Origin: Vicugna vicugna
Taxonomy: Eukaryota
Direction: 5' to 3'
DNA length: 64,000 nt
NCBI GenBank assembly: GCA_013265495.1
Contig: MU058009.1
Span: 2,668,001 to 2,732,000 of the forward strand
A program made the translations under genes and the position numbers. The notes below the pieces were generated by a model. That model saw only the letters and a program-made list of their open reading frames with translations. It ran no database searches and was not told where the DNA came from. Shown here piece after piece: positions 8,301-55,448 of this stretch. How positions within the stretch are numbered: position 1 is the stretch's first letter; every line of letters starts with the position of its first letter.

Positions 8301-10574
8301 CTAAAGGTATGAATAAAATATGAGAGGCCATGTCAAGTGAGTAGAGATTTAATAACTGAAAAAGGAATGGACTTGGACTTGGTTCTCACACTGCCTGAGG
8401 TTTATACCTCCTGTTAATGATTCCTGTAGCATTTTTGTCGCTTACACTTCTGGATCGTCCTTAACTGGGTTTGGTATTTAATCAGGGCTTCTTGGTGATC
8501 TGTCCTGAAACACCCCAACGACAGTTACCCAAGGGAAAATGCAGGTGACAGCCCTTGGAAGAGCAGCTGCTGTGCAGTTATCTGGCACCCACACTTGCTC
8601 CTTCATTTAGGGGTTCAGCGAGGGGACTTTGGTGAATGCGGCAGGACTGACGGGTCAGTGGGTGTCCATCAGGTGTCTGCTTCCCTCCACCAAAGGGTAA
8701 ACAGCAGAAGAGAAGCAGTTATGTTTCTGCTCAGTGTCCCCCCCCCCCCCCCCCCCCNNNNNNNNNNNNNNNNNNNNNNNNNNNNNNNNNNNNNNNNNNN
8801 NNNNNNNNNNNNNNNNNNNNNNNNNNCCCCCCCCCCCCACCCAGTTGGTGACATTTCCCTGCTGTTTCAGGTCATTGACGAGACCCTGGATGTGAAGGAG
8901 ATGATTTTCAATGCTGAGAGGGTCGGGGGCCTCGAGGAGGAGCCGGTATGTGTTTGTGTTTGGAACCTGCTGGCAGGTCCCACATCAGTCTGTTCTGTTC
9001 TGTCCCGTCTTCTCAGCTCAGGCGGAAACTGGGAGCAGTGCCTTCCCTCTTTAGTTACTAAACGTCCCTCGTCACCCCATTTTCCATACTTTTGGACAAG
9101 AACGCTCAAACTAGAATCTCCGTGGAGATTGGGAAGGGAGGGCTCTGCGCATCTGGGCGGTCACCGGGCTGCGAGGGAGACCCGACGGAGGGCTCACGGC
9201 TTCCCCAGCCCATCTCTCTCACCTCCACCTGCTCCATTTCAGGAGTCCCTGGGGCCGCTGCGGGAGGACTTTGGTCTGAGCAGCAGCGCCCTCATCGGCC
9301 TGCTGGTCATCGCGGTGGCCATCGCCACGGTCATCGTCGTCAGCCTGGTGATGCTGAGGAAGCGGCAGTACGGCTCCATCAGCCACGGCATCGTGGAGGT
9401 GAGCGCTGGGCGCCCCTCAGCGCGAGCTCTGCCCTGAGCCGCCAGCAGCTCTCAGGATTCAGACGTCTCGCTGGGGACCTCGCATCCTCGCCGGGTCATT
9501 AGGCCACTTGTTGGAAGTGAGCCCCGCGGAAGGATGGTGATCCTCGACCGGGGGCCACAGCCAACTTGGCGCGTTGATGTGGGCTTTGTGAGTGTGAGGA
9601 AGTCGCAAGGGCTGCAGAGGGTGAAACCTGTTCTGAGTGTTTCCTTAGCGTTTCTTTTTCCAGGTGTGTTAGATGTTTGCGAATGAAGGACTGCTGATAC
9701 TGTTTATTTATTGTTAGTTTAATGTTTTTAATCTGTTTTATAAGGAACAAAGCAGGTGTTTGACGGCTCAGGCAGCAATGGCCACATGGGTGAACCGCGT
9801 CTTTAAAATATGAAGTAGGAATAATATTCTTCTTTTTTGGTGGGGAAAAAAGCGACAGGAAGTTCAGAAAGAGGCAAAGCAGACTGTTTCTGTTCCATTG
9901 TCTGCGCACTTGTAATTAGAGCTGCTTTATTACGCTTGTGTTGGTGGGTGGTGGGAACGCCCAGAGAGTCTGGATTCTAGAGGAGGGAAAGCGTATGCTC
10001 TGGAAACTAGTTCAGATGCCTGTGTCTTAAGTTACGAGGTTTCACCTCCTGCTGGACGCTGACCTCATTACAGAATTCCAGGCTGGAGGAGCCCCGGGGG
10101 GTTGGTTGTCTGGCACCACTCCTTAGGTTACAGGCGTGGCTCACTGAGGCCGCCCCGCACCAGAGCAGCAGAGCTGAGCCTTGCTGTCACTGTGATGCTG
10201 AGAGACTCAGCTCACCGTTCTATCCACTCGGAGCAGGCGTTTAGGACTCCAGCTTTCAGAAGCCTGGCCTCTCTGACCCTCTTCTTTCCTCTCTCCTCCT
10301 CCGGGGTCCTCACCAGCTCTTGTTTGGTTCGCCTGGTGGAAACAGGGCTCTGGGCTGACTTTGGTCCCCGGGGAATCACACGTGCAGCTCAGGTCTCCTG
10401 ACGCCCTGGGAAGTCCTCCTAGGGTCATGCAGTGACCCCGCCCCCACCCCACCCCCATCTCTGTTCTTCCAGGTCGACCCAATGCTCACCCCAGAAGAGC
10501 GTCACCTGAACAAGATGCAGAACCATGGTTACGAAAACCCAACCTACAAGTACCTGGAGCAGATGCAGATTTAA
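2202..10574 (+). CDS. APLP2: Amyloid beta precursor-like protein 2, 3' part (5' exons upstream of window); join(2202..2301,3684..3836,5302..5337,8008..8093,8871..8945,9243..9398,10473..10574)
   Basis: Seven AG/GT-bounded exons total 708 nt in one frame: [47 protein letters not shown]...TM ([23 protein letters not shown])...[15 protein letters not shown], matching the APLP2 C-terminus. Confidence 0.98.
2630..3540 (-). mobile_element. Degraded L2-like LINE fragment
   Basis: ttcatttattcagcaaatgtttg...tactgtgtg is typical of a reversed L2 3' end, followed by purine-rich L2-like body; family from memory. Confidence 0.5.
3684..3836 (+). CDS. APLP2: APLP2 exon (juxtamembrane linker)
   Basis: tgtcag|ATGAG...AATGAAG|gtgggt; [51 protein letters not shown]. 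Confidence 0.96.
5302..5337 (+). CDS. APLP2: APLP2 36-nt alternatively spliced exon (12-aa insert)
   Basis: cgctag|ACACCC...AAAAAAG|gttggt; [12 protein letters not shown]; frame-preserving; long upstream pyrimidine tract. Confidence 0.92.
8008..8093 (+). CDS. APLP2: APLP2 exon
   Basis: acccag|GGTCTG...AACATG|gtgagc; [29 protein letters not shown] (not in the ORF track). Confidence 0.95.
8758..8826. other. Assembly gap (69 N) inside a poly-C tract
   Basis: N run flanked by C homopolymers on both sides. Confidence 0.99.
8871..8945 (+). CDS. APLP2: APLP2 exon
   Basis: tttcag|GTCATT...GAGCCG|gtatgt; [25 protein letters not shown]. Confidence 0.96.
9243..9398 (+). CDS. APLP2: APLP2 transmembrane exon
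   Basis: tttcag|GAGTCC...GTGGAG|gtgagc; [52 protein letters not shown]. Confidence 0.97.
10473..10574 (+). CDS. APLP2: APLP2 last coding exon (intracellular domain, YENPTY)
   Basis: ttccag|GTCGAC...[39 protein letters not shown]. Confidence 0.97.
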
Positions 10575-11910
10575 GCGGCAGGAGCGCTGCGCCCGGCTGG
10601 AGTGGGGGCGCGGCGGGCGGCGGGGCTCCAGGCGCCTGGATCGACTACTGAGCAGCAGTTACTCCCAGAGGGTTTCATCTTCACTCGGACCTCCTGGGTC
10701 ACTGAGACTGTAAAGCGCTGCTGTAGAATCACGAGTTCCATGCTTTCAAATGGGTGAACAAATGTTAATATAAGTATATGATACATAAACCTTAAATGAA
10801 GTGAAAAAATGATCTATTGCAGATATTTGACTGATGTAGTTTTCCTTTTTTTTTTTTAAATTAATCAGGAATCCCACTTCCATTGTATTGTCTCACACGT
10901 ACTCGCTATAGAAACGGGAAATGTTGATTCTCAGCGATAGACTGTACATGCTGTATGCAGGCCGTTTGTTCCAGCTGCATTGTGTAAACCAGCTCTTTAA
11001 GGCTCACTGTCCTGTCCTGGTTTTTATTAAAAAAAAAAAAAGAAGAAGAAGAGGCAGTATTCCCTTTTAAATGAGCTTTCAGAAAGTTGCTGAGAAACCA
11101 GCTGAGCTAGGAGCCGTAACTGAAGTACACCGGGACCCCGTCTCAGAGCCACTGTGAAGGGCCAGTTCCTTGAAAGTCCGGTGCTCCCACCGCCGGGTAC
11201 CTTGGTGTCTCCGCACAAGGCCTGTCACCACGGAGGCGCCAAAGGCAAGCATTTGAGTTCCAGCGTCCTTCGGCCAGCCTGGTGTGTGCAGGTTAGGGCC
11301 CCTGCCGCCTTCCTCCTGAACCCAGTTCTCCCACAGAAAGTAGCCTGTAGTTTGTACGTGATTTTCTGCCACCGTCTGCCGTTGACTCACCGTGGCTTCC
11401 CACTGCTCACTCCTCTCCCGAGTCGTGTCCTGGGGTGCCCCCTCCCTCGCAGGGCATTTCGCCCCCGCAAAGGCATTGACCCCGAGTCCCCCGTGGTCCT
11501 CCGAGGCGATGCGGTAGGAGGCGGCCGACGGCCCGGGGAGAACGTGAGGGATTGCCTCCCCCTGGAAGGTGGGTGTTCTGGGTTGCACATGCAGTGATCT
11601 GTAGACCCCGTGGAAAGCTCTGAAGGTTTTGTTTTCTCCACTTGAGTCTTTGTGATGCTTGTATAGTTGATGTCGATGCTCACAGCTGCTGCTTTTCCTC
11701 TTTTTTTTTTTTTTTTTTAAATTCTGAAGGTTCTGGTAACCTGTGGTGTATTTTTTTCTGTTTCCCTGTGGCAGTCTTTTTTCTTCCTCCCCTCTACCCT
11801 GTCCATGTCTCTTCCCACTATGCACAGAGAAACTTCACCCACAAACTCCTTAATCTGATCTGTGGAGAATGTACAGTTTAAACACATCAATAAATACTTT
11901 AACTTCACCA
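10575..11910 (+). other. APLP2: APLP2 3'UTR (end approximate)
   Basis: Follows the stop codon and ends shortly after AATAAA at 11889-11894. Confidence 0.8.
11889..11894 (+). terminator. APLP2 polyadenylation signal AATAAA
   Basis: catcAATAAAtactttaac with a downstream T/GT-rich element (cttgttttatt). Confidence 0.8.
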
Positions 11911-12662: not shown

Positions 12663-15524
12663 TTCTCACTGGAGGTGGTTTGTTTACCCCACACCTGCTT
12701 TCAGCACTTTGTGCCTGGGGTGGTTTTCACTGGTGACCCAAGTCTTTTTAACGTCCAGCTACTGTATGAGTCAGTTCAGGGGCTCAGGTCAGAGTCCTCA
12801 CCGTAGTTGAGTGAAACGCCAGTCTACATATTTGGTGCAGTTAAGATTCCATGGTGTACACACGCGTATCTGGGTATAAAAGTACACCTGTGTGCGTGTG
12901 CGGTGTATACGATACTGGATTAGGGAGTGCATTTTACGAGCCTCTGGCCAGAAAGCACCTTGGGACAAACCAGTTGGACGAGCTGGTTCTCAGCGATCAC
13001 ATTCCCCCACCTGCCCCTCCCTCCCGCGCTGACCTCACAACCTGCTGCCAGGAAGGTCGTGAAGAAGACGAGACTTTATTTTTTGAACTCAGTTTCTGCC
13101 AGAGTGCCCTGAAGAGTGTTTTCACCTGACCCTCTGTAATACCAGGTCAAAGTGGGGATCTACACTCATGATTCGGTTCCAATTCTAACAGACCAGCCTC
13201 ACTTGAGTGTCTGCCAGCTGCCAGCTGCTCTGTGTGCAGTGCCTCAATTAATTGTCTTCATTTTATAGCACAGCTTTTATTTTATAGCAAGCTGAGGTCC
13301 TCCGACTAGGGAGGGATGAAGCAGAGATCCAAGCCCGGCTGTCACTGTTGTCCCCTTGTCCAGTGTCCGTCAGTCCTGGAAGACAGTAGGCCCTGGGAGT
13401 CAACGCACAAGCTGGTGCTTGCCAATCAGGACCCATCCCACAGGCCAGCTCAGGGCTGGTGTCTGCTACCCACGCTGCTGTCGACGGTGGGCTGGTGACA
13501 TAGCAGTGGGTTCTTTTAAGTACAACTCATTCCCTGAATGGGGTCAGTGCGGAGGGTGCTGAGGTAGATTGGAGCGTCCTGGCAGCTGGGTTCACGTAGC
13601 ACCCTCCTCCTGGATTGACGGAGAGCTCTGTGTATCTAGATGGATAGAAACTCTGTGGCGATGCAAGGTTTTTAATTCCGAAAGGAAACGCCCATGGAGT
13701 TGCATGTGAGACCGGGACTGCCCGGCCGGCTCCCCCTGGACCAGCTCCGCTCTGCTCCCTGGTGGCACTGTCCCCTCACCAGGTCCTGAGAGAAACCTGC
13801 CCTCTCCTGGTTTCTGGTCGGTGACTCAGCCTTGCCCTCTGGGGAATGTGGCCCTGCCCATCTTGCTGGCACCTCAGGTGCCGACAGCTCCCAGTGGACT
13901 TTGGTGCGAGGCCCTCCTACTTCCCCGTCTGCTCTCAGTTACAAACCGGAACCTGTCAGCTGAGGTCTGAGCCAGGTGCCCTGGAAATCTCTGGTTTCTA
14001 TGGCTATGATTTAGGAGACAGATTGGGATGCAATGAGTCACTAAGATTTGAGGAGGTCCCGGGGTCCCCTCGAAAGGAGCACACTGTCTTACACTACTCG
14101 TTAGAAGTGGTGGGACAGGCAAAGTGGCAGGAAGGAGCCGGAAGGCCCTGTGGCGTCCCCCTCATTTCACAGGTGGCACAGCCACCAGCTCATATGCTAC
14201 TCAGCACGCAGCCAAAGCGTAGAGCGTGCAGTAAGCTCTTTTCTGGGACAAAGGGTGAAGTGGTCCTTGTAAGATGGAGAACCAGCACCTTGCCTTGTCA
14301 CCTAGCGTGAACAAGGGGACACGGTGTCTGCCCTGTCCTCTGTGTGCATGAGGTCTAGAGGCCTTGACAATTGCAGGTGCGGGTGGCCCAGGCATCCAGG
14401 GAAGGGGCACAAGAGACCTAACCAATGAAAAAATATTTTTCTAGAATCCTTGAAAAGCATGGGGCATGATTTCTTGAGGAATCTTGAAGAGCTCTCTGGC
14501 CAAGTTGACCCACGTCTGACGGAACTTAAAAGGCTGGATGGAGTCCGTGTCTCTTTGTCCTGAGAGCAGTAACATCCATCAATAAAAGCTTTCTCATATG
14601 TGTCCCCCACAGAGAGTTACTTTAAAATTATGTACATAGATTATCATAGATAGTAACTCTGAAAGCATCAAAAAGATGGAATTTTTTTCCCCAAATTTTA
14701 TTTCATAAGGGTACAAAGCCTTTTGGGCCCAGTAAAATTTATTCAGATTTCATTAGTTTTTGCAGATGACATTTTCCTGTCCCAGGATATCACATATTTA
14801 GTTGTCTCTTTAAGCTCCTCTCGACTGAGGCAGTTTCTCAGAATTTCCTTGCTTTTGATGATTTTGAAAGTTTTGAGGAGTGCTGGTCAGGCCTCCTGTA
14901 GGATGCCCCCTCTGCGGGGCTGGATGGATGTTTTTCTCGCAAAAGCCCCTGGGGTTGTGTGTTACTGGGGAGGAAGACTGCAGCCGGGTGCCACGCCCAT
15001 CAGCCCACGTCCGGGCGCGCACCGCCGCGCCGTATCCCTGCTCACCCTGGCCTTGACACGCTGGCTGAGGTGTCTCGGTTTCCCCCCTGTGAAGTCTCTC
15101 TCCTCTGTCCTCCCTCTCTGGAAGGATGCCCCTGTCACCCGCCTGAGCTTCAGGAGTGGAGTTACACTTCCCCATACCTTAATTGCTTTTGCGTGTTCTA
15201 GCCCGCAAAACAGAGCCACTAGGAAGTCTGGTTCTAAGGCCCATTTGTTTCTTTGTCGTATTCTGTATTTCATGGCTATCAAAGCTCGAAGAGTTCTTGA
15301 CTATGGGGTGGTTTCAGGGGTGTATAAGTCTGACATATGTCAAACTTATCAGAATGTCCACCTCTAATATGTGCAGTTTATTGTATGTCAATTACACCTC
15401 AATAAACCTGGGTTTTTTTTTTTTTTTCAAAGCCAGAAGAGACGCCTCGCAAAAGCAGGCTGGAAGTGGGAGAAGTCATTCTTGACTGTGCCTGTTAACA
15501 GCACAAAACTCAAATTCCAATCCT

Positions 15525-15614
15525 GGGGTGGTGATAACTCAGTGGTAGAGCACATGCTTAGCATGCATGAGGTCCTGGGTTCAACTCCCAGTACCTGAAA
15601 ATAAAATAAAATAA
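15525..15614 (+). mobile_element. tRNA-Ala-derived SINE (camelid Vic-1-like) with target-site duplication
   Basis: gggg...ctcagtggtagagcacatgcttagcatgcatgaggtcctgggttcaactccc (A/B boxes, AGC anticodon remnant), A-rich tail, TSD tccaatcct at 15516-15524 and 15615-15623. Confidence 0.85.
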
Positions 15615-17935: not shown

Positions 17936-18509
17936 TGGCAGGTTAACAAAAACTCCACTAAGGGCAAGCTCACTGAACTCTAATGAAAAATTGTAGTGTT
18001 GCCTTCATTTAATAAAGGGGGTAGGGCTTTAAAAAAGAAAAAGTGACGTGAGAACAAGGACTCTCCGTGCGGGAAAAGAAAAATACAGAGACAAGACATC
18101 ACAGACGATGCTACCCTGTGGTCCCAAACTGGAATCAGAAGTAAATATGAGTGTGAATTTGTTGGATATTTTATCTCTTTAAAAAACTTCCTAGCTTTGT
18201 TCACCAAAAGCCCCAGACACAATGACCAACTCAGTGTAACGAACACTACTTGTGTCCAGTTGATTGTCTCGAAACGGCATTTCTCATCAGAAGACACTAG
18301 GATGTCTTAAAGAAATGGCTGATGGCACGTGTGGGCAGGTGGAGCACAAGGTGGATCTTACCAGAAAGCAAAGAATGATCAAACATGAGCAAGACTGAGT
18401 CAAAAAAGAGTCAGAACCAATGAAGACATTCCTGCTGGTCAAAGAGGGGACAGTTTGAACATCAATAGCATAAAAACGGCAACGAACCAAAACATAACAA
18501 CTACGTTTA

Positions 18510-19143
18510 TTTTTTTATTGTAGTATACTTGATTTACAATGTTGTGTTAGTTCCTAGTGCTCAGCAGAGCAATTCAGTTACACAGATGAATATTTTCTTT
18601 TTCATATTCTTCTTCACTATAGGTTATTACAAGATATTGAATGCAGTTCCCTGTGCTATACAGTAGAAACTTAATGTATATCTATTTTAAAAATCGTGGT
18701 TTGTATCTGCAAATCCCAAGCTCCTAATTTATCCCTCCCCACCCTTCCCCCTTTGGTAACCATAAATTTGTTTTCTAGATCTGTGAGTCTGTTTCTGTTT
18801 TGTAAATAAGTTCATTTGTGTCATTTTTTTTAAGATTCCACATATGAGTGATATCATATAATATTTGTCTTTGATTTGCTTCACTTACTATGATAAACTC
18901 TATGTCCATCCATGTTGCTGCAAATGGGATTATTTCATTCTTTTTTATGGCTGAGGATATTTATAAATACATAACATCTTCTTTATCCAATCATTTGTCA
19001 ATGGACAAATTTTAGTTTGCTTCCATGTCTTGGCTACTGTAAATAGTGCTGCTATGAACATTGGCGTGCATTATCTTTTCAAATTAGAGTTTTCTCTGGA
19101 TATATGTCCAGGAGTGGGATCACTGGGTCACATGGTAACTCTT
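18510..19143 (-). mobile_element. 5'-truncated L1 3' end
   Basis: T-rich tail then typical L1 3'UTR/ORF2 end (tatgtccatccatgttgctgcaaatgg..., gtaaatagtgctgctatgaacatt); imperfect TSD caactacgttta/caagtatgttta. Confidence 0.85.
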
Positions 19144-19910: not shown

Positions 19911-20288
19911 GTCGGATCCGAAGTAACGTAAAGGGGATGGCATGCATAGCACTTAAACCCGCTGCTCTGCCACAAAGGAGGGTCTCCTATCGCCTCCCAG
20001 GTTCCCAGAGCATCGTCCTTTGTCTCACGGAGCTGTGGGTGCCCTGCACGGAGAAGGCACTTGGTGCCGTCATCTGAACCCAATGCAGATGCCGTGCGTT
20101 TACTGCGACTCCAGACCAAGAGGAAGCGATGCAGGCGGAGACCCTTCCCGACAGTGTCCTGTCAGCTTACTGAGTGCATGTCACGCGGGATGGAGGAAGA
20201 CGTGTAACCACCCATCCTTACATTAAAGCCCTGATATGAGGCTGGTGCTTTTATTCCTAAACTGTTAGCAGACAAACCCAAAAGCAGA
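19911..20288 (+). repeat. Long inverted repeat, left arm
   Basis: Reverse complement of 21277-21658; ~95% identical by manual alignment. Confidence 0.97.
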
Positions 20289-21276
20289 AGCTGGAGCTCC
20301 TTAATACGCCGACACACTCATCAGCTTTGTGGCCTCCCTCTTCCCTGCAACCCCGTTCAGAGAGCTCTTACGTGGACCAGGAAAATCAAAACGCCCTGCG
20401 GAGCAAGCTCCAGCTGAGGGTGAGTCAGTCTGGGAGGAAGGAGACGTTAACTGTGCCTGTGAAAGTCCCACAGAAGTGACATTCGGGCTGAACTTGGATT
20501 TTGCCTGGAGAAGGAGCACAAGTGGGCGGGGTGATGTGGGAAAGACGCCAGGCTGATGGAGTATCGCTGTCAAGGCCGGGGCGGCGTGTGGAGGGAGGGC
20601 AGAGTTTCCTCGTGGCTCCTAAACTGGTATTTAGAAAGCACGTGTTTACCTTCCACAGGAAAGTGCCAGTAGGTGTCAGATACACATAGCTTGCTCTAGA
20701 AGATTAAGATACATTCACGGATGACGGCCCTCTAACTGGTTCATTCTGCTCTCCCTAAACCTCTCCCACACCAGCTGTCTGCAGACTGGTCCTTGCCGGA
20801 GTGGGGTTTGCCCGCCAGCCTGGCATGATCTGTGTCACCTGGGTTTGTCCCTGGTTCTCACCATCTCTAACAGGAACAGAGCTCGGGGATTTTAACCTTG
20901 GGCTGAGTCGACCTGACGTGGCCCTACTCCCTCTCATGTCATCACCAGGTGAAGCCAGTATCTTTTGGCTTGTGCTGTAGTCCACACGTGTACACCCTCT
21001 AAGTGGCTCCGGCCCCAAGTGCTCTGGGGGTAGCTGGAGGGAGTGGCCTTCAGAGGGGGCCCCAGGGCCCCAAACCTGACTTCCCCAGCAGACAGAGTCC
21101 GGGTCAGGAAGAGGACTTACGCAAGAGATGGCAGCTTTGGGGCAAGGAGAGAGATGAGGGTGGAGGCATGCGAGCTGGTCATCATGGCAAATGACACAGG
21201 CCTCGGGCTGACATCTGGGTTTGAACCTGGATTTACCCCTTAGGAGTGTGAGAACCTGGCTTTATCCTTCTGGCTG

Positions 21277-21658
21277 TCTGCTCTTGGGTTTGTCTGCTTA
21301 CAGTTTAGGAATAAAAGCACTGACCTCACATATCTGGGCTTTAATGTAAGAACGGGCAGTTACACGTCTTCCTCCATCCCGCGTGACGTGCACTCAGTAA
21401 GCTGACAGGACACGGTGTCGGGAACGGTCTCCGCCTGCATCGCTTCCTCTTGGTCTGGAGTCGCAGTAAACGCACGGCATCTGCATTGGGTTCAGATGAC
21501 GGCACCAAGTGCCTTCTCCGTGCAGGGCACCCACAGCTCCGTGAGACAAAGGACGATGCTCTGGGAACCTGGGAGGCGATAGGAGACCCTCCTTTGTGGC
21601 AGAGCAGCGGGTTTAAGTGCTATACATGCCGTCCCCTTTACATTACTTTGGATCCGGC
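21277..21658 (-). repeat. Long inverted repeat, right arm
   Basis: Reverse complement of 19911-20288; ORFs 19889..20119(-) and 21450..21746(+) share the same N-terminal translation. Confidence 0.97.
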
Positions 21659-22380: not shown

Positions 22381-23449
22381 TAATGACTAGTGTTGCACAG
22401 GTGACTTTGCCCCAGTACACAGAAATGAGTGTGAAGGAGAAGGTCTTCCCAGGAGATGGGAAGCATTAGGAAAGGTGCAAATGTGGGACAGTCTGGCTAC
22501 AGAGAAGGAGACTTAATAAGAAGGCTGGGAGGCAAGTTTGTAGAGGAAGACAGGTCACGCTATGAAAGCCAGGCAAGGAGGTTGAAGTCCATCCAGGAAA
22601 CACTGAGGGTTTTAAAGAAGCCGTGGTTTAGGAAGGGTAGACTGATTGCTGTGTGTAGGAGAGATCTAGGTCCATAAACTAGAGACAGGAGGTACTTTTG
22701 CTTTTTACGCTAATCCAGGCAAAGGGTGACAAGGGCTTGAAGTGGGGTCTTCTGAATGGGGAGGAAAGAGAGGGCTCTACACATTAGCTACTTAAGAGAG
22801 AGACTTGCAGGTTTGGAACTAATTAGCTATGAGATGTAAGGGGGTAGGGAATCAAAGATGATTCCAAGGTTTTGAGCCCAGGAGAATGGATGACAATATT
22901 ACAACCAGAGAAAACGGTACAAGACGGCTGAGTCTGGGAAGGAAGCTCTAGGCTTGCTGATTGTAAAGCAGGGGGTTTTATTTTGTTGACTCTTGTGTCC
23001 CAGCACCTAGAACAGTGCTTAGCATATAAATGTGCTCAATAATATTTGTTTTTTTTCAATAATATTTGTTGACTAGGTAACACCAGTAGAACGCAAGTGG
23101 AGAAGTTCCCAAGCAGTTGTTAATGCAGTCGGCCTCCTTCACGATGTCTGCTAGGAAGGCAGATACACCTACTTGAAGCCATGTGATGAGTTGCCAAGAA
23201 AGTGGAGAGGAAAAGGGGGGAAGGTTGAAGAGAGAGCTTTGGGGACCCTGACATTTAGGGGTCAGAAAGTAGGACCAGAATCCAGAGAAGGTGGGCAGGT
23301 GAGCACTAGGATCAGTCAGTTGCTGCCAATGGGTGAAGGAGGCTGGGGCAGGAGAAGGGGGCACGGGACTGAGCGGCTCTGGGAAAGCTGGACACCGACC
23401 GCAGCAAGGCCCTCCTAGCAGTGAAGAGCAGCTACTGGCCAGAAAGGAG

Positions 23450-24470
23450 AGTCGGGGCAGTGGCTGGAGGGGGAGGCCGGGCCAAGCGGCCGCCCTGGTT
23501 TTTGCTTGGGTTCGGAGGGGTCCTAACAGCCTAGACGTGGAGCAAGGCAGGGAGGCGGAGGTGGAAGATGGAGAGAGGAAGGAAACCATGGCCGGCGTGG
23601 GGGGAAGCTGTCCTCCAGGGGAAGGACCACTTCCAGGCTAGGAGCAGGGCGGGGGAATTAAGTTTCGCTGTTGTTCCAAACTTCCTGCGGGCCCGTTTTG
23701 TGCGGCGCACAGTGCGGGCTGAGGGCCACCACCAGGCAGGTCGCCATCCGGCTGCCACACCACCTGAGGCGGTGGCCTGGCTCCCCGGCTCCCNNNNNNN
23801 NNNNNNNNNNNNNNNNNNNNNNNNNNNNNNNNNNNNNNNNNNNNNNNNNNNNNNNNNNNNNNNNNNNNNNNNNNNNNNNNNNNNNNNNNNNNNNNNNNNN
23901 NNNNNNNNNNNNNNNNNNNNNNNNNNNNNNNNNNNNNNNNNNNNNNNNNNNNNNNNNNNNNNNNNNNNNNNNNNNNNNNNNNNNNNNNNNNNNNNNNNNN
24001 NNNNNNNNNNNNNNNNNNNNNNNNNNNNNNNNNNNNNNNNNNNNNNNNNNNNNNNNNNNNNNNNNNNNNNNNNNNNNNNNNNNNNNNNNNNNNNNNNCGG
24101 GGCGCCGGGGGCCGGGCAGCGCCGCGCGTCCCTCGGCCGCGGGAGCCGCTCCGCCGGCGTTTGCGGCCGCGGCGCCGGCCCGACAGGTGGAATTTCCTGC
24201 TCGGCGGGCGCCGGCCGGACCTTGGGTTCCAGCCCTGCCGCGCCCGCCCGGGGCCGGCGGCCCCGCGGCCCTCTCCTCCGGCCCTCCGGCCCCTCGGGCC
24301 TCTCGCCGCCTGGAAGGGGCTCGTCTGGGGCCGCTCACGAACGCCGCGCTGTGCGTGCACGTCTGGAAGGAAGCAGCGGCGCCGGCTCGGAGAGGGCGAC
24401 TTGGGCCGGGGAAGGAAAGTTTCCAGGGCGCTTTGGAGCCCGAGCGTCCTTGGCCTCCGCGCGAATTTGC
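23450..24470 (+). promoter_or_regulatory. ST14: ST14 promoter CpG island; exon 1 inferred in gap
   Basis: Very GC/CpG-dense sequence either side of the gap, upstream of ST14 exon 2; E-boxes CACCTG 23761-23766 and CAGGTG 24184-24189. Confidence 0.8.
23794..24097. other. Assembly gap (304 N)
   Basis: N run inside the CpG island. Confidence 0.99.
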
Positions 24471-27400: not shown

Positions 27401-28814
27401 CTGTGCTGGAAGGTGTGTGCAGGGGTGAGAGGAGAGCAGGGGAGGTGGTAAGCATGGGAACTAGCCTGCCCTCCGCTGGTCCTGGGAGACCTGGGCATTC
27501 CTGGCCCTCATTCAGGAGACGGGAAACTGAGGGTGAGAGAAGGCAGCACTAGCTTGACAGCTGCTCAGGTAGGAAGCCGAAGTCTCCTGCGACCCCTGCA
27601 GATTGTCCTGGGGTGGGTCTGCCCAGAGCCGGCTCCTCTGTGGGGCCCCGTCGCGCCTGCCTGGCCTCTCACTGTCAGCTGTGGCCAGTGGCCGCCGTGG
27701 TCCTGGAGTTCCTCTGGTATCAGTTCCTTCTCTGGCAGTGGTTCTGCCCAGGTGGTTGGCTCATGTCTCTCCTAAGAGAGGAAGTCTGTTCTTAGAAGAA
27801 GAGCGAGGGTGTGACCAGCCCCTGAGGAACCCAGGTCCCAGAGATGTGGCTTCTGGCCTTGTGCACATACGACGGGAGCGTTCAGAGCTCTGATAGTCGT
27901 TGCTGGTGCTTACTGAGCATATAGCATGTGTTGTACCTCTTAGACCTTTTTACAGGCGGGGAAGGGGGAGCACAGAGAGGCTGAGTGACTTGCCTAAGGG
28001 CGCAGCGCAAAACAGCAGTGGGGTTGGGGTTTGCACCCAGGCAGTGCGGCTGTGCTGTGTTCTCCCTGGACTGCTGCGGTGCAGGGTGGCGCTCTCCGCC
28101 CAGAGGGCTCTAGGAGGGATTTACGTCTAAGAGTAAGAGTTGGTTTGATTTGGGTAAGAAACTGGATTTCTCTTCTTAGGATTTTTCTGAGATGCCTGGC
28201 GCTTAGCAAAATTCCGATAACCATTTGATTATAGGAGTGGGAAATAGGAACTTCTGAGCGTCTCAGGGAATGCTCACTCTGGCTGGTGGGGGTGAGAAGG
28301 GTGTTTGGAATTTGCTCAGAGCTCATGGGCAGTAATTGCCCTTTTTCTTTGCTAAGAACTTTTCTAGAAGCAGATCCCTACTGAAAATTCTGTCTTGGAA
28401 TCTCGTATCATCAGAATTAGCAACAGAAACCTTAAGATCCTTGTGATAGTTGGCTAACAAACAGGTCAGAGTCTTGGGTCCTTGTCTCTCCGAGTTGGTG
28501 GTGACGGTGGTGAAAAGGTGAGGAATTTGATGACAGTCGTTGCTCCCCGGCACTAAATATGTGCACTTCTGTTCACCCTCTGTGTTCTCACAGCATCCGT
28601 ATGAGAGCAATGCCTAGTTTATGGATGAGATGACTGAGGCTCAAAGGGTTTGCATAATAGCCCCAAGGCAGTTAGAAGTGGAGCAAAGGTTCAAACCTAG
28701 ATCTGAGCGACTTCAAAGCCTGGAGTCTTAACAGCAAAGCCATTATATACAGCTGTGTTCCAAAGACGTGGAGGTTGAAACTCACCCCCAGCAAAATCCG
28801 AGAACACATCTTTA

Positions 28815-29721
28815 TTTATTTATTTTTAAACTTTTTTTTGAGTTATAGTCATTTTCCAATGTTGTGTCAAATTCCAGTGTAGAGCACCATTTTTCAGTTT
28901 TACATGAACATACTTATATTCATCGTCACATTTTTTTTCACTGTGAGCTACCACAAGAGCTTGTATATATTTCCCTGTGCTATATAGTATAATCTTGTTT
29001 ATCTACTCTACATTTTGAAATCCCAGTCTGTCCCTTCCCATCCCCCACTCCCTTGGCAACCACGAGTTTGTATTCTATGTCTGTGAGTCTGTTTCTGTTT
29101 TGTATTTATGTTCTTTTTTTTTTTTCAGATTCTACATACGAGCGATCTCGTATGGTATTTTTCTTTCTCTTTGTGTCTTACTTCACTTAGAATGACATTC
29201 TCCGGGAACATTCATGTTGCTGCAAATGGTGTTATGTTGTCATTTTTTATGGCCGAATGGTATTCCATTGTATAAATATACCACATCTTCTTTATCCAGT
29301 CATCTGTTGATGGACCTTTAGGCTGTTTCCATGTCTTGGCTATTGTAAATAGTGCTGCTATGAACATTGGGGTGCAGGTGTCATTTTGAAGTAGGGTTTC
29401 TTCTGGGTAAATGCCCAGGAGCAGGATTTCTGGGTCATACGGTAAATCTATTCTTAGTCTGTTGAGGAATCTCCACACTGTTTTCCACAGTGGCTGCACC
29501 AAACTGCATTCCCACCAGCAGTGTAGGAGGGTTCCCTTTTCTCCACAGCCTTTCCAGCATTTGTCATTTGTGGACTTTTGAATGATGGCCATTCTGACTG
29601 GTGTGAGGTGATACCTCATTGCAGTTTTGATTTGCATTTCTCTGATAATTAGTGATATGAGCATTTTTTCATGTGGCTGTTGATCATTTGCATTTCTTCC
29701 TTGGAGAGTTGCTTGTTTAGT
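28815..29721 (-). mobile_element. Young 5'-truncated L1 with ORF2 C-terminus
   Basis: ORF 29212..29664(-) [13 protein letters not shown]...[16 protein letters not shown]...[13 protein letters not shown]; perfect 15-bp TSD gagaacacatcttta at 28800-28814 and 29722-29736. Confidence 0.95.
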
Positions 29722-31536: not shown

Positions 31537-31863
31537 TTTTTTTTTTTTTTAAATTGAAGTACCATCAGTTACAATGTGTCAATTTCTGGTGTACAGCACA
31601 ACGTCCCAGTCATGAATATACATACATACATTCGTTTTCATATTTTTTATTAAAGGTTATTACAGGATACTGGACATAGTTCCCTGTACTATACAGCAGA
31701 AACTTTAAAAAAATCTATTTTTATATATGGTGGCTAACATTTGTAAGTCTCAAATTCCCATATTTTCCCTTCCCACCCCCTTTTCCTGGTAACTGTAAGA
31801 TTGTTTGCTAAGTCCGAGTCTGTTTCGGTCTTGTAGATGAGTTCACAGTGTCCTTTTTTTTCC
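31537..31863 (-). mobile_element. Truncated L1 3'UTR with poly(A)
   Basis: Poly-T then L1 3'UTR; TSD tgaaaaaccattctt (31522-31536) / tgaaaaaccgttctt (31864-31878). Confidence 0.85.
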
Positions 31864-36400: not shown

Positions 36401-36985
36401 GGTTAAACTTCCAGACCCTGCCCCTGCCCTGCTGCATCAGAATCTCCAGGGAGAGGGGCTTGGAAATCTGGGTGCTGAGCAAGCACTGTGCTTCTTTTAT
36501 TGTATTTTTTAATCATTATTTTTCATGGGAAATGCTAGGGTGGTGCGGTCAGTGGGAACCGGAGCCTCCTGTTTCTTGAGAATCTGGCTTCTTGTGGGAT
36601 CAGTTGGCCCAGCCTGGTGAGTGGGTGGATTCTGATGTGGCTTTCTCTTCCCTTTTCCTTTGTCGCTTTGGTCATCCTGGGATGAGCAAATCAGGTGTCC
36701 TCTCGGTGCTGGTCATTGTGCTGGGCGGGGACTGCAGTGGCTGCAGGAAGTCCCCGCCCTTGGGAGCTGGGAGTCCTCACAGCTGCCTGAGTGTTTTTGT
36801 GGGTGCTGATTAACTGAAAAGAGCCATCTAAGTAGGGCCCCTCCTGCCTGGAGACAGAGTCCCTTCCTAACCAGCAACTTGAAGCAGGGGCCTTTCTCCA
36901 GTTTCATCCCTCGTGTCCCTGGGCCACGCGTTGTACTGTGCTCAGCATCGCCCAGGATGGCGAAAGCTGTGTTAAGTTTTGGAAT

Positions 36986-37066
36986 TCACTCCTTGCTCTG
37001 TTGTCTCTGGTGGCCTTGAGCCATGCTGAGTTTCTGGGGACTCTGGCCAGGATCTAACTCAAACTG
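36986..37066 (+). repeat. Direct repeat copy 1 (81 bp)
   Basis: 73/81 identical to 38266-38346, ungapped. Confidence 0.9.
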
Positions 37067-38265
37067 ACATCAGGGAGCAGCCAGGAGAGTTAATCCTGGC
37101 TTTGTCTTTCCCTTGGAGAATGAAGGCATCTTCAAGGTGCCAAGGAATGTGTCCTCACTTGGAAAGCCATTGCTGATGCTCAGACTGTTTCTTGCCTGAA
37201 CCATCTCAAGGATATTTTATGGTTCTCATGACTGTGGCTGCGGGGGTGACATCGTGGAATTGAAATCTGTCCCATCTGGTGGTGGGTACACGGCGTCACC
37301 AGACCTGTGAGTGAAGCGTGCCTGCTGCAAGTCAGCTGGGGGGTTGGCAGTGGCACCTGAAGCCAGCCACCCCTGTCCTCCTGCCAGTGACATCACCTCT
37401 GCCCTTTGACCTTGATCTTCAGCACCAGAAGCACATCACCAGGTGTTCTGGGAGGGCCTCTCACGGCCCCTTCCTGGGCTCCTGGCAACCTCTTTAGTCT
37501 TCAGGTTCACCTCCTGCCTTCCTGGCAGATCACATCCAAACTTGGCCAAATCAGGAACAATCTTTAAAAAAAAAAAAAAGAGTCCAGCGTGAAGACTTCT
37601 TTTCTCCCCATCTGCTTTGACTGGAGTCTTGTGTGGATTTTTGGGTCGTTGGTATTATTTCTGTTATTTATGAATGTGAACACTTACCAGTAGCTTTTCT
37701 CCTTTGAGGACCACACTGAGCTGCCAGTGGTGCGTTCTGGCTTCGGATCCACTGGTGCCTGGAGCCGGGGGAGAGCAGGTCCTGATGAGCACACAGCAGG
37801 TGCCAGGTCATCAGTGTGTTCTTGAGGAGCAGGCGAAGAAGGGTCTTCTCCCACGGGAGGTTCAGTGGTGGACTTGGACACTGAGTTTGTCTGCTTAGCA
37901 TTGGGCTTTCAGCCCTGGCGAGTTTCTTAATGGGAGTAAGGTGACTACGAGGATCTTTCCCGTAGCATCAAATGAAATGTACCTTTTTCTTTTTACCTTC
38001 TGGAAGTGATTTTTTTGCCCAACCACTGGGGCTGGACCACTCGGGGAGGATACACATCATTTGCACTGGTGTGCTTACAACAGCAGAAATATGGTCTTCT
38101 CCCCTCCTGAAGTTTTGGACAGCACCCCCTCTATTGCTCCAGGAAGCTGGGTGGGGATGGTGATCTGATCTGGCCCCTGCAACCTTCCCCTTGGGTTCTC
38201 CCCCTTTGTCTCTCCAGGGGCTTCACTCTGCATGTAGCCCTGAGGCCCATCTGTCCTCCAAGAAG

Positions 38266-38346
38266 TCACTCCTTGCTCTCTTGTCTGAGCTGGCCTTGAG
38301 CCACGCTGTGTTTCTGGAGACTCTGGCCAGGATCTAACTCAAGCTG
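38266..38346 (+). repeat. Direct repeat copy 2 (81 bp)
   Basis: 73/81 identical to 36986-37066; offset 1280 bp. Confidence 0.9.
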
Positions 38347-39061
38347 CCCGGGGGGAAGAGGCCCTGAGAGTTGCATGGCCTCTGTTTGTGGTTAGCAAGC
38401 TCCTGCTTCACAGCTTTGGGTTTTGTACGTGCACCTGCAAATGTGTTTACTTTCTCGAGAGAGGAGAGGCAGAGGGAGGCGTTGGCATACACCCTCCTCC
38501 ATTGGCTCTGTGGTCTGTAGAGAGGTGATTATATGTAGAGAGAAGGTTGTGTACACGATTAAGCTGGAGTGGATGGGAGCTGACAACCGCGTGCATCGGT
38601 CAAACCCCAGCCAGGGTTGGAAGGCGTGGCTCTTGTCCCACTTGGCTGCATTACTGGCTTAGTACCTTTGTGACTTTGGACAGATCACTCCCTTTCTCTC
38701 AGACTCAGTTTCTTTATCAGTGAAATGACTGGGTTAGGCAAGATGATCTCTAATATCCTGCAAATGGAGCCAAGAGTAGGGTTATAAAAGGAATTGGTCT
38801 AGTTACTGATTAAACAGCGTTTCTGGGCTGCATGGAGCCCAGAGTTCATAATGCCTTTGAACCAGTCCCACCACTGACTGCCTTGCTCTGTGGCCAGTCT
38901 AGGGTGGCCCTGGGGTCTGCTATCCATGCCATCGGCCACCTTCCCCTTGCCAAGGGGCTTGTGTTCTCATTTCCCAGAGTACTTACTCTCTCAATTCTGG
39001 AAGCTGACCACAGGGAGGCAGAAAACCAGTATCTAATCTGGAGTGGCCACTGAGAATACAT

Positions 39062-39185
39062 GGGGAGGGTATAGCTCAGGTGGTAGAGCGCATGCTTAGC
39101 ATGCATGAGGTCCTGGGTTCAGTCCTCAGTACCTTCTTTAAAAATAAATAAATAAACCTAATTACTCCCCCCCTACAAAAAAAGA
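39062..39185 (+). mobile_element. tRNA-Ala-derived SINE (camelid Vic-1-like)
   Basis: ggggagggtatagctcaggtggtagagcgcatgcttagcatgcatgaggtcctgggttc...aaataaataaa...acctaattactccccc...aaaa. Confidence 0.88.

Positions 39186-43382: not shown

Positions 43383-55448
<12,066 letters not shown>

Follow-up and report, generated by a model that had tools for sequence, protein, structure and literature searches.

Chen et al. 2017 (PMC5398296) describe inverted duplicates as pervasive in the intergenic DNA of mammals. For mammalian gene conversion, tract lengths between tens of bases and 1 kb are reported, and 56 conversions versus 3 inversions are given for the human Y palindrome P6 (PMC3723533). Inversions between repeats that are more than 90% identical are said to be mostly recurrent, and Giner-Delgado et al. 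place an inversion in the recombination-derived class only if its repeats measure at least 654 bp (PMC6748972). Among human repeat pairs similar in size to the one described below, HsInv0021, HsInv0049 and HsInv0062 are entered as not polymorphic (PMC13629690 Table S1).

The stretch analyzed here, hereafter called the window, comprises 64,000 nucleotides of Vicugna vicugna DNA (GenBank assembly GCA_013265495.1, contig MU058009.1, positions 2,668,001 to 2,732,000), and it carries a real inverted duplication. When the window is compared with itself by BLAST, a left arm of 376 bp on the plus strand (19913-20288) pairs with a right arm of 380 bp in reverse complement (21277-21656, minus strand) at 94.7% identity over 380 columns (E 5e-169). 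Of the 25 inverted pairs in the window, none of the others comes close to this one. The arms enclose a spacer of 988 bp (20289-21276), predicted earlier as about 990 bp, which has no self-inverted similarity above background. Within these trimmed ends, the arm-arm alignment includes 16 substitutions and two 2-bp indels. The original prediction used slightly wider ends (19911-20288 and 21277-21658) and counted about 17 substitutions and two 2-bp indels, for roughly 95% identity. Aligned with those ends, the arms span 382 columns at 94.5% identity and differ by 17 substitutions and two 2-bp indels, so that both the location and the tally hold.

The most unusual property of the arms is a shared core of 198 bp. 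Positions 21426-21623 on the minus strand of the right arm are the exact reverse complement of positions 19946-20143 on the plus strand of the left arm, a segment with 11 CpG dinucleotides, as had been noted from inspection. The outer 33 columns carry four substitutions, the 198 core columns carry none, and the inner 149 columns carry 12 substitutions along with both indels. The earlier description of a perfect center with divergent edges is therefore accurate in that differences occur only outside the core, but the core sits off-center, 33 columns from the outer arm end and 149 from the inner one. Both outer arm ends also include the short palindrome GGATCC (19912-19919 and 21650-21657). That the element starts and stops on this self-complementary hexamer could mark a template-switch point, or it could be due to chance.

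The differences cluster far more tightly than even decay of a single old duplication allows, in agreement with the claim that such a history fits the arms less well. When 19 events are placed at random in 384 columns, a longest identical run of 198 has a probability of 2e-5, or 1.5e-4 once adjacent changes are merged to 15 events. Weighting CpG sites 5 or 10 times does not raise this value, and it stays below 0.007 even with only 10 events. Likewise, the 182 edge columns hold 18 events and the 198 core columns hold 0 (Fisher P 1e-6, for a core that was chosen post hoc), and CpG columns are identical in 23 of 23 cases within the core. The placement of the core is not a product of chance, and something appears to have reset the middle of the arms. 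The GC content of the arms (54%) is not above that of the spacer (56%), which gives no hint of GC-biased conversion over the long run.

Several characteristics of the edges indicate that the arms are two real copies. Transitions account for 13 of the 16 arm-arm substitutions (P 1e-4), and differences are found in 6 of 22 CpG columns at the edges versus 10 of 156 other columns (P 0.006, slightly inflated because a column is counted if either arm has a CpG there). These two excesses are what argue for natural divergence of genuine copies, and the edge divergence of about 9% is far too high for two alleles. The arm ends are sharp. All eight alignments of 60-250 bp past these ends gave similarity within background (P 0.26-0.76), and we therefore rejected the possibility that an older and longer duplication has decayed beyond them. 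No target-site duplication above background was detected, as originally stated, and the strongest direct repeat close to the ends, a 7-mer located inside the arms, is within background. Similarly, no third copy of the arm is present in the 64-kb window, and none of five tandem-repeat rows falls in the element. The left flank aligns to another stretch resembling an old repeat in a match that runs into the left arm (P 0.03), but this match is too weak to indicate which arm is ancestral. Open reading frames in the arms are disfavored as coding sequences by the two indels and by the absence of exon context. A metagenome scan for host DNA with a 23-mer yielded 0 matches, whereas a 19-mer yielded four loci, none similar beyond about 20 bases, which is the level expected by chance.

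The element is intergenic, with an APP-family gene upstream and ST14 downstream, at a locus that is presumably autosomal on the basis of synteny. The last coding exon of the upstream gene is located at 10473-10574 on the plus strand (Pfam APP_amyloid), and this gene is presumably APLP2, the name it was first given on the basis of synteny. In the stretch scanned downstream of this exon, the first AATAAA or ATTAAA occurs at 11889, which is 8 kb before the left arm, and nine further plus-strand poly(A) hexamers lie between that position and the arm. The identity of ST14 is confirmed by a protease exon near 54.2 kb whose best PDB match is ST14 (E 3.8e-50), and the remaining exons were read by eye from about 43.3 kb. 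GC and CpG content begin to climb near 23300, and past an N gap at 23794-24097 the island proper is seen at 24100-24400 (visible part 24098-24450). The right arm is about 1.7-2.4 kb from this island, consistent with the 2 kb initially proposed. A search for a short motif from the first ST14 coding exon gave no match, and so this exon presumably resides within the gap. The gap falls in the GC-rich ST14 promoter, and the assembly seems to lack this exon. Another N gap of the window is at 8758-8826.

The arms had also been called CpG-rich. Their observed/expected CpG ratios of 0.65 and 0.75 are indeed raised over the 0.43 of the window, but the excess is modest: these values are matched by 7% and 2% of 172 GC-matched tiles and by 15% and 5% of 60 tiles in the first 23 kb. 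A ratio of 0.75 is also reached in the 500 bp directly left of the left arm.

Other repeated sequences are scattered through the window. An 85-bp direct repeat in the long first intron of ST14 (36982-37066 and 38262-38346), with copies that are 89% identical and 1.3 kb apart, looks like another small local duplication. Two tRNA-like elements (15524-15596 and 39061-39137) are 86% alike, and the first carries A-rich tails; they probably belong to a tRNA-derived SINE family. Three AT-rich fragments (18507-19142, 28810-29449 and 31631-31861) are related at 70-73%, and by eye they look like 3' ends of old LINE-1 elements. Finally, an ST14 intron carries two MIR-like copies at 51040-51480 in opposite orientation with overlapping ends.

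We favor, with moderate confidence, a model in which an old local inverted duplication was followed by at least one arm-to-arm conversion that reset about 200 bp. Gene conversion is the usual explanation for such a reset, and the tract falls within the size range given for mammals (PMC3723533). About 380 bp of ordinary intergenic DNA would have been copied once, backwards, to a site 1 kb away, perhaps by a template switch during replication or repair. The copies would then have decayed independently to give the 9% divergence now seen at the edges. One or more non-crossover recombinations between the arms, in the simplest case within a single chromatid, would subsequently have overwritten the tract that is now identical, and a single event of this type would be enough to account for the core. 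If changes are assumed to accrue at 2e-9 to 2.5e-9 per site per year, an age of about 19-24 million years follows for the edges and one of less than about 3-4 million years for the core. A tract of this length would suffice for renewed conversion or, less often, for a crossover in the core, which would flip the 988-bp spacer without touching either gene. The element most likely has no selected function. The two arms, their sharp ends, the natural mutation spectrum and the non-random clustering are observed, and the origin, the conversion and the neutrality are what we infer.

The most serious challenge to this model is that the core might be a product of the assembly. Two real copies might have diverged evenly by 5-8%, and the assembler might then have merged the differences in the middle, such that no conversion is needed. 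In a bubble-merging assembly graph, copies are joined at words shared in the middle, whereas differences chained to unique flanks survive. We consider this explanation possible but clearly short of probable. The original prediction had pictured the assembly artefact as a locus with only one arm, but two real arms with a merged middle are the likelier form, one that would give just such a perfect center between divergent edges. In 6000 runs per setting, with 5-8% divergence and bubbles of up to 150 bp that were up to 10% different, an identical run of at least 198 with at least 14 differences left was seen in 4.6-15.8% of runs at k=25-31 and in 2.8-4.0% at k=41, versus about 1e-4 without merging. 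The pattern fell to 0.4% or less of runs at k=63, and it remained a minority outcome even though the merging rules were generous and of our own invention. The window does come from a gapped assembly, but the element and its surroundings contain no N, and the nearest gap is 2.1 kb away. The longest identical run at the edges is 29, with none reaching 31, just as merging predicts, although this is also expected by chance (P 0.48). In a search of sequencing runs, 15 of 24 rows, representing three organism labels and eight studies, carry 0.92-0.94 of 311 sampled words, whereas five RNA or guessed-RNA rows carry 0.07-0.14. Among the rows listed, one raw-read run appears, a targeted single-cell library. 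The higher share excludes loss of the words specific to both arms (expected 0.84-0.85). It fits equally well with loss of the core words (0.945), loss of the words specific to one arm (0.92) or about seven SNPs, and therefore it is no proof of two arms or of a perfect core. A further way to dispense with conversion is to assume a single old duplication that decayed evenly and kept its 198-bp run by luck. The element was picked from many windows, which enriches for rare patterns, but given the run probabilities presented above we regard luck as exceedingly improbable.

Three further explanations assign the arms a function or a different origin. Purifying selection might hold both copies of the core identical if it is a regulatory element, such as an enhancer for ST14. 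The location about 2 kb from the ST14 island and CpG ratios within the upper 2-15% of matched tiles are consistent with this idea. However, the CpG excess is mild and is shared by the adjacent 500 bp, and enhancer selection preserves short motifs rather than every base, which does not account for identity across the whole core (198 of 198 bases) with its 23 CpG columns. A literature search whose reach covered few subscription journals found no paper on such an element, and we judge this explanation to be unlikely. A slightly less probable alternative is that a transcript crossing the element, derived from read-through of the APP-family gene or from upstream antisense RNA of ST14, folds up as a long stem, that this stem undergoes editing or dicing, and that its pairing is under selection. 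As originally proposed, such a transcript is predicted to form a double-stranded stem, with 364 arm-arm pairs on the plus strand or 368 on the minus strand and a longest helix of 198 or 205. However, folding is expected of any inverted repeat and shows nothing alone. The read-through route must pass the hexamer 8 kb upstream of the element and nine more before the left arm, and the ST14 route needs 4 kb of antisense RNA. Moreover, a candidate poly(A) signal, AATAAA, precedes the second core copy on either strand (21310-21315 within the right arm's inner part on the plus strand, and its mirror at 20250-20255 in the left arm on the minus strand). A bias toward G-U wobble pairs is absent on either strand (5 versus 8, P 0.58, from small numbers), and the element lacks a match to Rfam, whose two tRNA-like matches in the window both lie elsewhere. 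An inverted repeat at mouse Optn's 3' end offers a precedent, in that it likewise has a stem of about 300 bp, a 1-kb loop and a location downstream of a gene, and it gives rise to low-level endo-siRNAs. However, the Optn repeat is expressed (PMC11239679), whereas the element described here is 8 kb past a poly(A) hexamer. Editing of inverted Alu pairs is also reported to drop with distance (PMC526178). Finally, the arms might represent one interspersed repeat present twice in opposite orientation, or else belong to a non-autonomous DNA transposon as its long terminal inverted repeats, which we consider very improbable. The geometry fits, and most human pairs of such size are listed as SINE or LTR pairs (PMC13629690 Table S1). 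The inner arm also looked MIR-like by eye, but this idea was not supported by our comparisons within the window. A profile built from 10 MIR-like copies gave no hit on the arms, although its power is limited in that at E < 0.1 it retrieved 7 of 10 copies that had been left out, and pairwise MIR-like scores were within background (P 0.11-0.44). The lack of a target-site duplication and of a third copy in 64 kb also argues against a repeat family, though a family of low copy number might leave no further copy in such a stretch.

The arms exceed 90% identity around a unique segment of 988 bp, which is the geometry seen in recurrent inversions. When a table of 612 human candidate inversions was queried for chromosome 11 starts 1300-1302, none was found among the matches listed; we assume that human ST14 lies near 130.1 Mb. 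Hairpins stall replication forks in eukaryotic cells at a reported spacing of 12-52 bp (PMC7999016). The 1-kb spacer is far above this range, and therefore formation of a DNA cruciform is unlikely.

The structure is of a known kind, and a function is without support. Literature searches with ST14, APLP2 and inverted repeat returned no paper on the element, and searches with camel, ST14 and APLP2 returned none on the locus. A sequence look-up gave no similar element. Nor did the locus appear among the best 20 of 89 papers on structural variants in camels. We regard as improbable, when taken as a whole, the proposal that this is a lineage-specific, non-transposon mirror element 2 kb upstream of the matriptase promoter, in a genome without Alu pairs, whose identity is maintained by repeated conversion and whose spacer flips in living populations. 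In that proposal, spacer orientation would alter ST14 output, or transcription upstream of the promoter would yield 200-380 bp of double-stranded RNA.

If the core is real, then the element presents a small and clean case of conversion in unique DNA near the lower size limit for mammalian homologous recombination, which is roughly 200 bp, and it could be easily typed by PCR or long reads. If the core instead reflects an assembly merge, this would serve as a warning for other findings of perfect cores in the same assembly. The locus would carry greater weight if the spacer flips and alters ST14, which encodes a dose-sensitive epithelial protease, or if double-stranded RNA is made.

The element shares features with several described systems. 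Like the set reported by Chen et al. 2017 (PMC5398296), it lies in intergenic DNA and consists of two reverse-complementary arms around a spacer no longer than 1 kb. However, its 380-bp arms are far above the 80th percentile of that set (36 nt), and internal perfect cores are not treated in the portion of that paper on which we draw. Four polymorphic human inversions resemble it in arm length, spacer length and orientation: HsInv0045 (repeats of 256/257 bp with 940 bp inside), HsInv0098 (297 bp with 1077 bp inside), HsInv0031 (285/249 bp with 644 bp inside) and HsInv0193 (418 bp with 618 bp inside) (PMC13629690 Table S1). The arms of these four are SINE or LTR copies (PMC13629690), whereas no repeat family was found for the arms described here. 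The human Y palindrome P6 provides a parallel for the proposed process, in that its arms are kept alike by conversion, which is more common there than inversion (PMC3723533). The arms of P6 are about 100 kb and more than 99.9% alike, whereas those of our element are 380 bp with one tract, and conversion is proposed from one sequence. In its internal pattern, the element is similar to HsInv0209, where a 782-bp block of 99.9% identity is reported within duplications that are 94% identical (PMC3961182), and thus a near-perfect block likewise resides in diverged copies.
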